Source: Promethearchaeota archaeon
GTDB lineage: Archaea; Asgardarchaeota; Lokiarchaeia; Sigyniarchaeales; SOKP01
Direction: 5' to 3'
NCBI GenBank assembly: GCA_016839555.1
Contig: JAEOUA010000001.1
Span: 80,554-144,553 of the forward strand
DNA: 64,000 nt
The translations under genes and the position numbers were made by a program. How positions within the stretch are numbered: the stretch's first letter is position 1; each line of letters starts with the position of its first letter. Shown here piece by piece: positions 4,141-7,087 of the stretch. The notes below the pieces were generated by a model. It worked only from the letters and a program-made list of their open reading frames with translations, was not told the origin of the DNA and did not search any database.

Positions 4141-5070
4141 ATGCCGGAAAAAGTAGTAGAGATTTCTGGAGTGGAATTACAAATTACCGAGCCCGCTGAA
4201 ATTGATATGGAATGGGTTGGGAATGAAGATTTAATTAATCAAGTGAAAGCTGCGTGGTTAATAGTTGATAAAGAGGATCTTCCTCTGACGCCCCGCATCC
4301 TTGGCAAACCGGGAATTGGAAAAACGACACTTTGCTATGCGAGTGGAAAGAGGCTTAAAAAAGATGTCTACATGTTTCAATGTACTATGGATACAAGACC
4401 CGAGGATCTTCTTATCAGTCCAGTAATTTCCTCAGATAAATCCATTAAATATGTTGCCAGTTCATTAGTATCTGCGATGATAAAGGGGGGTGTATGTCTT
4501 TTAGATGAGGCAAATAGGATGAGCGAAAAAAGTTGGGCCTCCTTAGCACCTCTTATGGATAAAAGGCGTTATGTAGAAAGTATTATCGCTGGAATCCGTA
4601 TTTATGCACACCCAGAATTTCGACTTTGCGTGACTATGAATAGTGATGCTAGTACTTATGAAGTTCCCGAATATATTTTAAGCAGAATGATTAATATTTA
4701 TGTGGATTTTCCTAATCGTGCTGAAGAGTTACAAATATTAAAGTATAATTTACCTTTCGCTTCGGAAGAGATTCTAGAATATTGCAATGAATTTTTGCAA
4801 AATGCGCATATTCACGATCAACCAATTGTATCTCGAGATGGAATAAAATGTCTACGATATTATATCAAACTAAGGCAATTAAAAGGGAAGGATCCTAAAA
4901 AATTAAATAAACCGGAGTTTAAAGATTCAATTTTGCATATATTAGATAAGCAAGCGATTAAATATTGTCCAGACGAGTATGAAAATTATCTTAAGGAAAT
5001 TAAGAAAAAAGATGAGAACCAAAAAATATTGGGAACTTTCTTTCCATCAGAAAATCCTAATGATTTTTAA
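4141..5070 (+). CDS. AAA_5 / MoxR-class (CbbQ/NorQ/GvpN-like) ATPase
   Basis: Walker A [9 protein letters not shown] and Walker B [19 protein letters not shown] (sensor-1 region) is typical of the AAA_5 family. 309 aa. Confidence 0.8.
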   Translation: [309 protein letters not shown]

Positions 5071-5086
5071 TTAAAAATAAAAGAGT

Positions 5087-7087
5087 ATGATCGAGAATAA
5101 TTTTCCATTTATCAAGTATGGTAATAATGTTTTTGTAATTCCTACGTTTCATAGCCGGATTGAGTTTGCAAAATTGGTTCAGAAAGCTTTTTTTACTGTA
5201 TATCCCGATTTAATAGCAGTTGAATTGCCAGCTACCGTGAAAAAGGAAGTTTTTGAAGGTATAGAGAGACTTCCTTTTCTTTCTTTAATCGCGTATGCAG
5301 ATAGTTTAAATCCTGACAAACTTAACTTTATTCCTATTGATCCTGGTGATTCTATCATCCATGCAATTCGAATAGGAAAACAACAGAATGTACCTATAGA
5401 ATTCATTGATTTATCAGTAAAAGAATATCAACCTGAAAACATAGAACTGCCAGATGATTATTCTTTAAACGCTATTGATTTACAAACATTTTATAATGAA
5501 ATTTCAGTTCATTTCCGAAAGACTCTTTATAAACAAAAAACCAAATTGCGAAATCAACTAGACTTCCAAGATCTAATAACCAACGAGGAGCAATTAGATG
5601 CGAGGTATGAAAATCTTGAAAAAGATGTTTTTAGAGAAATGTATATGGCCTCTAATCTTTTGAGAATGATGCCAGCTTATCATAGAATCTTATTTATTGT
5701 GGGGATGGCTCATTGGGAATCTATAAAATATTATTTAGAACATCCTTCATTGCTAAAAAATGTTAATATTGACCTAGAACCCCATAAATACCTTAAAATT
5801 TACAATGTGAAGGGGAATCATGCTCGTTATCTTCTCAGAGAATTACCATATCATGTATATCAGTGGGAACTTTTTAATCAACAATTTTTTAAGAAAATTT
5901 TGGAAAATATTCAAACTATAGAAGAATTAAATTCTCTTATTGATGAATTTGATAAAAATACTCATATCAAACAAATATATCTTTCTGCGAAGAATGAATA
6001 TGAAGAGGAATTCAAAGAATATATTAACCTTCAAAAATTGAAAAATCTTTTTCAGTATACACGTAATATCACCTTAACGGAAAAAAGACTCATACCTAAT
6101 TTATTTCATTTATTAATTTCTTCAAAAAACCTTATAGATGATGATTTCGCATGGAAAGTAATGGAGGAAGCAATTAAATACCCCTTTGATGATGATAGTG
6201 AAAAATATGAAACTATTAAGCTTGATATGGAAGGTGGATACGATCCAAATGGCCGTTATATTAAATTACAGAGACATCATCCCTCATATTATAAAAAACC
6301 TAAAGAGGTCCCATTGGAGAAGAGGCCAAAAGAAAAATATCCCGGTGAATGGCGAGACAAATGGGAGGGAGGGAAAAATCGGACAGTATCTTATCCGCCG
6401 GAAGATATAATTGAGGAAAATTATTTTGCATATATTCGTCAAAAAGCTATTAAAAATTTAAAAGAACGACGAATAAATATTGAAGAATTTCAATCAAGCA
6501 TCAAGGATGGTATAGCAATTAAAGAAACAATTAGAGATTGGGGTATCAATAAAAAAATTTATGTGAAGAATGAACAAAAAATTAAAGGAAGAGTCGATAC
6601 AATTGTTATTATTTTTGAGGAAGATGATGGAGAGATAGAAAAATATCCCTATAAGCTGACTTGGTGGGCAGAACATGATAAAGAAAGTAACCTTGCGTTT
6701 TATTCAACCAATCCGGGAGAATATCTTATTGGACCAGGAATCTCTCATGTAGAAATAGGGGGTTTGCTCAGTATTTTTCCTCCTATATTTATTGAACAAG
6801 TATTCAGTGCGTATATGGATTATAATTATAAAGATGCGGAAACTAAAGCGGAACGCCTCCTTAAAGCGGCAATTCTCTATTCTAGAGAAAAATATATTGT
6901 ATATATTGCCAAAAACCCGCCCCGAAAACACTTTTATTCTCTTGCGGGCGTAAAGCATAGAGAAATTATATATATTCCTCTCGATAATTATTCTCAAGAA
7001 TCTTTTAAGCCCGTAAGACATATTCATATTTTAGCTGGGAAAGATAAAAGAAAAATTGCACATAACTATATTTTCTTAAATAAATGA
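5087..7087 (+). CDS. TraB/PrgY/Tiki-like N-terminal domain protein with a large uncharacterised C-terminal region (DUF5682-like?)
   Basis: The first ~215 aa carry, in order, VIPTFHS, PDLIAVELP, FREMYMASNL and LFIVGMAHWESI. These match the GxxH / Glu / ERDxxMA / GxxH signature of the TraB/Tiki superfamily. 16-nt gap after the AAA_5 gene. The remaining ~450 aa are unrecognised. Confidence 0.5.
   Translation: MIENNFPFIKYGNNVFVIPTFHSRIEFAKLVQKAFFTVYPDLIAVELPATVKKEVFEGIERLPFLSLIAYADSLNPDKLNFIPIDPGDSIIHAIRIGKQQNVPIEFIDLSVKEYQPENIELPDDYSLNAIDLQTFYNEISVHFRKTLYKQKTKLRNQLDFQDLITNEEQLDARYENLEKDVFREMYMASNLLRMMPAYHRILFIVGMAHWESIKYYLEHPSLLKNVNIDLEPHKYLKIYNVKGNHARYLLRELPYHVYQWELFNQQFFKKILENIQTIEELNSLIDEFDKNTHIKQIYLSAKNEYEEEFKEYINLQKLKNLFQYTRNITLTEKRLIPNLFHLLISSKNLIDDDFAWKVMEEAIKYPFDDDSEKYETIKLDMEGGYDPNGRYIKLQRHHPSYYKKPKEVPLEKRPKEKYPGEWRDKWEGGKNRTVSYPPEDIIEENYFAYIRQKAIKNLKERRINIEEFQSSIKDGIAIKETIRDWGINKKIYVKNEQKIKGRVDTIVIIFEEDDGEIEKYPYKLTWWAEHDKESNLAFYSTNPGEYLIGPGISHVEIGGLLSIFPPIFIEQVFSAYMDYNYKDAETKAERLLKAAILYSREKYIVYIAKNPPRKHFYSLAGVKHREIIYIPLDNYSQESFKPVRHIHILAGKDKRKIAHNYIFLNK

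Follow-up and report, generated by a model that had tools for sequence, protein, structure and literature searches.

What does a MoxR-type AAA+ ATPase do beside a large protein with a TraB/Tiki-like N-terminus, when the vWA-domain partner usual for such ATPases is absent? The question is raised by two adjacent genes of a Promethearchaeota archaeon of the Lokiarchaeia (GenBank assembly GCA_016839555.1, contig JAEOUA010000001.1, positions 80,554 to 144,553 of the forward strand). This whole stretch of 64,000 nucleotides (nt), with a G+C content of about 30%, was analysed and is called the window below. The answer preferred here, with middling confidence, is that the two genes form an operon that is complete in itself and probably translationally coupled, one of a family shared by Asgard archaea and bacteria, in which the ATPase and its three-domain partner would work as an ATP-dependent processing or maturation machine. 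The identity of the two genes and the architecture of their products are stated with high confidence.

The ATPase and partner genes

The gene pair and the elements that delimit it are as follows.

4141–5070, + strand: ATPase gene, 309 amino acids (aa), AAA_5, MoxR-type, CbbQ/NorQ-like
5071–5086, + strand: intergenic spacer between ATPase and partner genes, 16 nt
5087–7087, + strand: partner gene, 666 aa, three domains
5087–5782, + strand: N-domain of the partner, aa 1–232, alpha/beta TraB/Tiki fold with H22, E46, R183-E184 and H209
5783–6376, + strand: M-domain of the partner, aa 233–430, mostly helical with a small beta element in the AlphaFold2 (AF2) model, no family match
6377–7087 including the stop codon, + strand: C-domain of the partner, aa 431–666, alpha/beta, the most conserved part
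7157–7163, + strand: seven consecutive T, ~70 nt past the partner stop codon, read from the sequence

The pair is present in one copy in the 64-kb window, and the gap of 16 nt reported in a preliminary description of this DNA is confirmed. At many other loci the open reading frames (ORFs) of ATPase and partner overlap by 4–14 nt, the ORF starts being approximate, which suggests translational coupling; the gene pair is thus probably coupled in this manner. The T run may be an archaeal terminator dividing the operon from a Ras-family gene further downstream. The window sequence itself was found in DNA metagenomes from marine sediment, marsh and soil and in one run of unstated type, with no RNA run among the matches.

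The ATPase scores far above the curated cut-off of Pfam AAA_5 (5e-16, 59.4 bits, cut-off 22) and also matches AAA_3 (1e-7). Walker A (GKPGIGKT, aa 54–61) and Walker B (LLDE, aa 119–122, within CLLDEANR, aa 118–125) are both present, so that the MoxR-class AAA_5 assignment and the two motifs given for this gene in the preliminary description stand as they were. In 70 orthologues Walker A, the Walker B region and a VTMNxDAST motif are near-invariant, as is TMDTRPEDL (aa 82–90), while N167 as sensor-1, the arginine R182 and R232 as sensor-2 are putative assignments made by position. The closest sequences in the PDB are the AAA domains of midasin (4e-14), NorQ (6e-8) and CbbQ (3e-7), and GvpN is partially matched as well; by analogy with CbbQ and NorQ the ATPase is presumed to form a hexamer. 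Between the window and bacterial orthologues the ATPases share 50–72% identity; in the comparison of both proteins across the two domains of life the values are 50–67% for the ATPase and only 29–47% for the partner. The Lokiarchaeial ATPases (window aa ~277–309, 4969–5070, and loci L001, L002 and L003) carry an extra charged C-terminal tail of 25–45 aa, which is found neither in the Hel copy nor in the bacterial copies of 271–288 aa.

Linkage and distribution

Close relatives of the 666-aa protein number 207, with a length of about 660 aa and 57–90% identity, all of them from Asgard archaea (metagenome-assembled genomes of Promethearchaeota/Lokiarchaeota). An exhaustive profile search extends the family to 1,257 cluster representatives at E ≤ 1e-3, among them 290 at E ≤ 1e-30, most being 560–800 aa long and 25–44% identical to the query. 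The family occurs in the Asgard lineages Loki, Hel and Heimdall/Thor and in bacteria, where a genome scan with four bacterial C-domains as query detected relatives in at least 589 species, including Geobacterales, Desulfobacterota, Acidobacteriota, Vulcanimicrobiota, Omnitrophota and Acidimicrobiia. One genome locus (L026) is labelled Rickettsiales. The pair is carried by none of 50,697 phages and by one of 72,556 plasmids, namely pS13 of the amoeba symbiont Neochlamydia sp. S13 (L089, 138151–140864), where it lies close to an AbiEi antitoxin gene, a recombinase and a group II intron and is labelled in RefSeq as 'AAA family ATPase' and 'hypothetical protein'.

Linkage of the two genes was surveyed at 84 loci (L001–L084, four Lokiarchaeial and 80 bacterial), of which 80 (76 bacterial and L001–L004) have room upstream of the partner gene. 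At 63 of the 80 the ATPase gene lies immediately upstream on the same strand and at another six 1–3.6 kb upstream; it is likewise adjacent at all three further Asgard loci (L086–L088) and at the single plasmid locus. The pairing is far beyond chance, and homologues of both genes thus stand side by side in other genomes, a point that the preliminary description had left to a gene-neighbourhood survey. Clustering of all flanking ORFs from the 84 loci yielded no third conserved gene, and the family is therefore a two-gene module everywhere rather than an archaeal reduction. In particular, the vWA partner that usually adjoins a MoxR ATPase is lacking, as had been described for the window: none is found among its neighbours there (a GH3 glycosidase, a radical SAM enzyme, a PCC-domain protein and Ras GTPases), and none is conserved at the related loci.

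At two bacterial loci (L014 and L078) the partner ORF comprises only the C-terminal ~325–367 aa and begins ~950 nt past the ATPase, and in the N-terminal half the gene could be split, frameshifted or misassembled.

Overall structure of the partner protein

An initial AF2 prediction of the 666-aa protein from 18 close homologues gave a predicted local distance difference test (pLDDT) of 53 and was replaced by a prediction from an alignment of 139 diverse sequences, with a pLDDT of 93.1 and a predicted template modelling score (pTM) of 0.89. These values suggest that the N-, M- and C-domains are packed as one body. In the model the N-domain adopts the alpha/beta fold of the TIKI superfamily as judged by Foldseek, whose top match in the PDB is a chain of Tetrahymena complex IV (E 3.7e-3, probability 0.97) and in BFVD a Marseillevirus 'TraB family protein' (E 1.7e-4, probability 1.00). 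Tetrahymena complex IV is reported to contain a TraB-family protein (PMC10060162), and the matched chain is probably this subunit. Two Lokiarchaeial orthologues (P0105 and P0107) show a Lys/Glu-rich insertion of ~35–40 aa within the helical insert of the N-domain (alignment A1, columns ~176–225).

For the M- and C-domains Foldseek returned nothing credible in the PDB or BFVD, and their consensus sequences gave no significant match in Pfam, the best one for the C-domain being DUF5816 at 0.04; two profiles and the N-domain consensus, searched against the sequences of the PDB, brought up nothing meaningful either. The last ~450 aa, unrecognisable to the preliminary description, accordingly have no credible match in Pfam, PDB or Foldseek. 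Three candidates for the C-terminal part were considered and rejected. That the protein is internally duplicated and its C-domain is TraB-like once more is rejected by hhalign, which finds no similarity to the N-domain, and hhalign also speaks against a cryptic vWA domain or a relative of YehP, YehQ or YehI. Weak matches to 'Mor' at the extreme C-terminus, reminiscent of a helix-turn-helix, are not significant, and the protein stops before the recognition helix would follow.

No transmembrane segment is predicted in the partner, the maximum Kyte-Doolittle value over 19 residues being 1.44 in a segment that forms a beta-strand in the model. The membrane anchoring or secretion typical of PrgY, TraB and Tiki is therefore not found, and the protein appears soluble.

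Relation to TraB/Tiki proteins and to DUF5682/YehM

The four motifs quoted for the 666-aa protein in the preliminary description are all present in the translation and in the order given, namely VIPTFHS (17–23), PDLIAVELP (40–48), FREMYMASNL (182–191) and LFIVGMAHWESI (202–213). Its own sequence produces only faint matches: Pfam gives nothing at E ≤ 0.1, and NCBIfam a weak one to TIGR00261 (TraB; 2.6e-4, 20 bits, cut-off 178). Among 77 individual family members tested against Pfam, 25 match DUF5682 (best 2.9e-6), seven TraB_PrgY_gumN and six DUF5694. With the family consensus of the N-domain the similarity becomes distinct, reaching 7.6e-12 for DUF5682 (44.8 bits, cut-off 26), confined to profile positions 1–82 of 727, and 8e-6 for PF01963 (26.3 bits, just under the cut-off of 26.8). 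Since the scores for PF01963 and TIGR00261 stay under the curated cut-offs, the protein is a relative within the superfamily rather than a member of PF01963 proper. The TraB/Tiki similarity proposed for the first ~215 aa is hence borne out by consensus profiles, hhalign and Foldseek, and extends over ~230 aa; the similarity to TraB and DUF5682 that a profile search was expected to reveal does emerge, once the family consensus is used.

The closest known counterpart is YehM. Comparison of the family with 25 DUF5682 proteins by hhalign yields 95.3% probability and an E-value of 2.2e-8 over query residues 13–345, and the N-domain alone aligns to YehM with 96% and 4.6e-9 over residues 16–218. The N-terminal ~210 aa of YehM are homologous to the partner and share its His, Glu, Arg-Glu and His motifs, which pair up as VIPTFHS with IIGVRHHS, IAVELP with VLIEGP, REMYMA with REAMMA and VGMAHW with CGGYHA. 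Neither the M-domain alone nor the C-domain matches YehM, YehP, YehQ or YehI in hhalign, and no alignment is obtained between the second half of YehM and the alpha/beta C-domain, so that the DUF5682 profile is not matched over its whole length.

The genetic setting of YehM is partly alike. The cluster of an AAA_5 ATPase with DUF5682, vWA and SWIM proteins, which the preliminary description had mentioned, is real: in Escherichia coli K-12 it consists of yehL (AAA_5), yehM (DUF5682, PF18934; 2.4e-98), yehP (vWA) and yehQ (SWIM), with yehI (DUF4132) upstream. In this yehI/K/L/M/P/Q cluster, as in the window, the TraB-like gene stands directly downstream of the AAA_5 ATPase. In contrast, the vWA, SWIM and DUF4132 genes that yield YehP, YehQ and YehI have no equivalent at the window locus or at related loci. 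Moreover, the window ATPase shares 18% identity with YehL and no BLAST match (17–21% for the ATPases of the family), and the ranges differ, the top matches of YehM being gamma- and betaproteobacterial, whereas the present family occurs in Asgard archaea, Geobacterales, Acidobacteriota and others. Because the ATPase is not a YehL orthologue and the C-terminal halves of the partners cannot be aligned, the family is, by sequence comparison, a sister of the YehL-YehM pair and not a reduced version of it. The suggestion of an archaeal two-gene minimal version is accordingly not supported: two genes are the standard form of a separate, mostly bacterial family, with an ATPase that is not orthologous to YehL and M- and C-domains that on their own match none of YehM, YehP, YehQ and YehI.

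Conservation of the putative active site and of the C-domain

Members of the TIKI superfamily possess catalytic His and Glu residues and a conserved Arg (PMC6254334). H22, E46, R183, E184 and H209 of the partner correspond to these, and the order of motifs is shared as well, namely beta-strand-His, beta-strand-Glu, a helical Arg-Glu and Gly-x-x-His. All five residues are present in the window protein and occur jointly in 94 of 139 family members; H22, E46, R183 and H209 are each retained in 81–88% of members and are invariant in DUF5682.

Conservation in the C-domain is stricter still. G475 and E529 are invariant, E439, D440, E444, E533, H647 and R655 are found in at least 98% of members, and S435, F468, D474, T481, R483, S534, G549-P550 and P565 in at least 94%; further conserved positions are P438, E480, (H530), G551 and G558-G559.

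Comparison with other TIKI-fold proteins and MoxR systems

With TraB/PrgY/GumN (PF01963, TIGR00261) and the TIKI superfamily, which comprises Tiki, RRSP, erythromycin esterases and ChaN, the N-domain shares its fold according to Foldseek. Unlike TraB, PrgY and Tiki, the partner is soluble, with neither membrane anchor nor signal peptide, and its N-domain is fused to two more domains (~430 aa in total) and coupled to an AAA+ ATPase.

Among MoxR systems the pairs CbbQ-CbbO and NorQ-NorD of the CGN subfamily are the nearest in layout, as they too consist of a compact AAA_5 ATPase of ~270–310 aa beside one large partner of 600–770 aa, and the ATPase is likewise far more conserved than the partner. 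Contrary to CbbO and NorD, the partner described here contains a hydrolase-type domain and no vWA/MIDAS domain, and no gene for a client enzyme lies nearby. Among PDB sequences the ATPase is matched best by midasin (Rea1), a very large protein of eukaryotes in which six AAA domains are fused and which also has a MIDAS domain; the similarity is restricted to the AAA_5 domain.

Ras-family genes and the Lokiarchaeial neighbourhood

The genes around the pair in the window are the following.

204–1800, − strand: block conserved in Lokiarchaeia and divergent from the pair, with a Ras GTPase (204–752), a 184-aa protein (787–1341) and a PCC-domain protein (1375–1800)
1944–4025, + strand: GH3 glycoside hydrolase with Glyco_hydro_3 N and C domains and an Fn3-like domain, between the PCC gene and the ATPase
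7226–7750, + strand: Ras-family small GTPase (Pfam Ras 4e-42), adjacent to the module without belonging to it
7832–8035, + strand: small ORF after the Ras gene, 67 aa, with a CxxC...C...C pattern (KNCQHY...VCRYF...YC), possibly a zinc ribbon, no Pfam match
8232–9935, − strand: radical SAM protein with an HMPTM-type N-terminal zinc ribbon, also downstream of the pair in L002 (10709–12412)
33295–34251, + strand: third Ras-family protein, 318 aa, with the GTPase domain at 155–310 and an N-terminal ~150 aa without match

The small GTPase noted earlier downstream of the pair is a Ras-family gene, at a distance of 138 nt and not 139 nt. The block of Ras, ~185-aa and PCC genes adjoins the pair in all Lokiarchaeial loci seen (L001 4018–6858, L002 4967–6831, L003 9913–10942), although in L003 it is found on the opposite flank, without the ~185-aa gene; genes for CDC48, KTI12 and an aminotransferase are situated further out. 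No such block is found at the Hel, Heimdall/Thor and bacterial loci. Since the block is confined to Lokiarchaeia, the gene downstream of the pair varies among the Lokiarchaeial loci, the T run lies in between and the window contains three Ras genes, the Ras GTPase beside the pair is a matter of local Lokiarchaeial synteny. It is not a conserved partner of the module, its linkage not being kept outside Lokiarchaeia. Neither L001 nor L002 has a GH3 gene at this place, so that the gene was probably inserted between the divergent promoters in one particular lineage. To the eye the 184-aa protein, in which cysteines occur in pairs, might be V4R/TRAPP-like; Pfam and PDB searches with it were negative.

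Proposed mechanism and alternative explanations

As to the physical complex, its catalytic activity, its substrate and the role of the C-domain, we infer the following. Where other MoxR systems have a vWA adaptor such as CbbO or NorD, this one would have the partner, docked on the ATPase ring. ATP hydrolysis would then serve to remodel a protein (or another ester or amide) substrate, to feed it to the Tiki-type site or to gate the latter, and the C-domain would act either as the element coupling the ATPase or as a second catalytic site. Such an ATP-coupled hydrolase, drawn by analogy, is proposed tentatively, its chances being somewhat below even. Several observations weigh against it. In ~15% of the members (e.g. 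those with PEHAL or SGQAH patterns) several of the catalytic residues of the N-domain are lost while all invariants of the C-domain are kept; the Tiki-type site therefore cannot be the universal core activity, and it is the C-domain that seems, from this pattern, to be the indispensable part. This very domain has no match in Pfam, NCBIfam, PDB sequences or Foldseek. At 11 of the 80 loci with room no ATPase is encoded within the 6–8 kb of upstream flank. Furthermore, characterised ATPases of the CbbQ/NorQ type are activases or cofactor-insertion chaperones and not partners of hydrolases, and a literature search found no biochemical or genetic study of any member of the family or of DUF5682/YehM.

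The foremost alternative is that the pair is a maturation or cofactor-insertion chaperone in the manner of NorQ-NorD, CbbQ-CbbO or CobS-CobT, where the TraB/ChaN-like domain would bind a metal, a tetrapyrrole or a target protein without hydrolysing it and the ATPase would drive insertion or release. We consider this unlikely, though deserving of serious attention. It is in keeping with NorQ and CbbQ as the closest characterised ATPases and with the partial GvpN matches, with the presence of haem-binding ChaN in the same superfamily (Pfam PF04187 description; PMC6254334), with the members devoid of catalytic residues and with the extreme conservation of the ATPase, which fits a housekeeping assembly factor. 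On the other hand, H22, E46, R183 and H209 are each retained in the large majority of members and are invariant in DUF5682, the flank survey revealed no linked gene for a client (an oxidase, Rubisco or a chelatase subunit, for instance), and neither Pfam nor hhalign finds a vWA/MIDAS domain in the partner. A conflict or anti-phage defence module, with the ATPase as nucleoside triphosphatase sensor or motor and the partner as protease-like effector, is improbable. Pairs of AAA+ ATPases and hydrolases are indeed frequent in defence systems, the family is spread patchily over bacterial phyla with variable flanks, and its sole plasmid copy has the AbiEi, recombinase and intron surroundings described above. 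Nevertheless, PADLOC gives no match for the partner, for which NCBIfam has no model either, and for the ATPase only weak generic AAA+ matches (TRIP13, 2e-4); this lack of a significant match, the absence from the phages and from all but one of the plasmids and the strong conservation of the ATPase between Asgard archaea and bacteria make a defence role unlikely, and the stable Lokiarchaeial synteny beside CDC48, KTI12 and the aminotransferase as well as the single copy in the window point in the same direction.

The other explanations concern the surroundings and the ancestry of the pair. RRSP is a TIKI-fold endopeptidase that cleaves Ras and Rap1 and cuts Ras in switch I (PMC6254334), and by analogy the Lokiarchaeial module might process Ras-family small GTPases. 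Given this precedent of a TIKI-fold enzyme acting on Ras a small probability of a functional link is kept, in line with the Ras-family genes found no more than ~4 kb away from the pair, both in the window and in four of four Lokiarchaeial loci, even after the rearrangement in L003; the idea is nonetheless very improbable, as the Hel, Heimdall/Thor and bacterial loci have no Ras neighbours, Ras genes are frequent in this genome, a simple inversion can account for the arrangement in L003, and an AT-rich stretch together with the T run lies between the operon and the Ras gene that follows it. Descent by reduction from the yehL-yehM-yehP-yehQ cluster is the least credible of all the explanations. 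The homology of the N-domain to DUF5682 and the position directly downstream of an AAA_5 ATPase in both cases would agree with it, whereas the remote relation of the ATPase to YehL, the restriction of the DUF5682 match to the first part of the profile, the C-domain without counterpart in YehM, YehP, YehQ or YehI and the generality of the two-gene form in the family, bacterial species included, all contradict it. Going beyond the preferred processing or maturation machine, the pair might even represent a new class of AAA+-coupled enzymes in which the C-domain is the core, maybe with a new catalytic fold, and the Tiki domain adds site-specific processing, the Lokiarchaeial substrates maybe being the flanking Ras GTPases as suggested by RRSP; this too is improbable.

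Significance of the gene pair

The module is of a known kind in so far as it consists of a MoxR-type ATPase with a dedicated partner, the closest case being YehL-YehM. What is new about it is that the ATPase is not an orthologue of YehL, that the C-terminal domain is highly conserved yet unclassified, and that vWA and SWIM genes are absent. The pair has no Pfam or NCBIfam model, no RefSeq name, no solved structure and no literature that could be found, and searches of the literature likewise returned nothing on the function of DUF5682 or YehM, on MoxR ATPases paired with TraB or Tiki proteins or on TraB in Asgard archaea. It is thus a pair strongly conserved between several Asgard lineages and hundreds of bacterial species, and yet unnamed.

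There are accordingly two separate families, the one described here and YehL-YehM, in which the protein paired with a MoxR-type motor has a TraB/Tiki fold and is not a vWA adaptor, and the present family defines a conserved domain of 236 aa without an assigned fold class. As cultured Geobacterales carry the pair, direct testing should be possible, and its function, once worked out, would also illuminate the equally obscure yeh cluster of E. coli.

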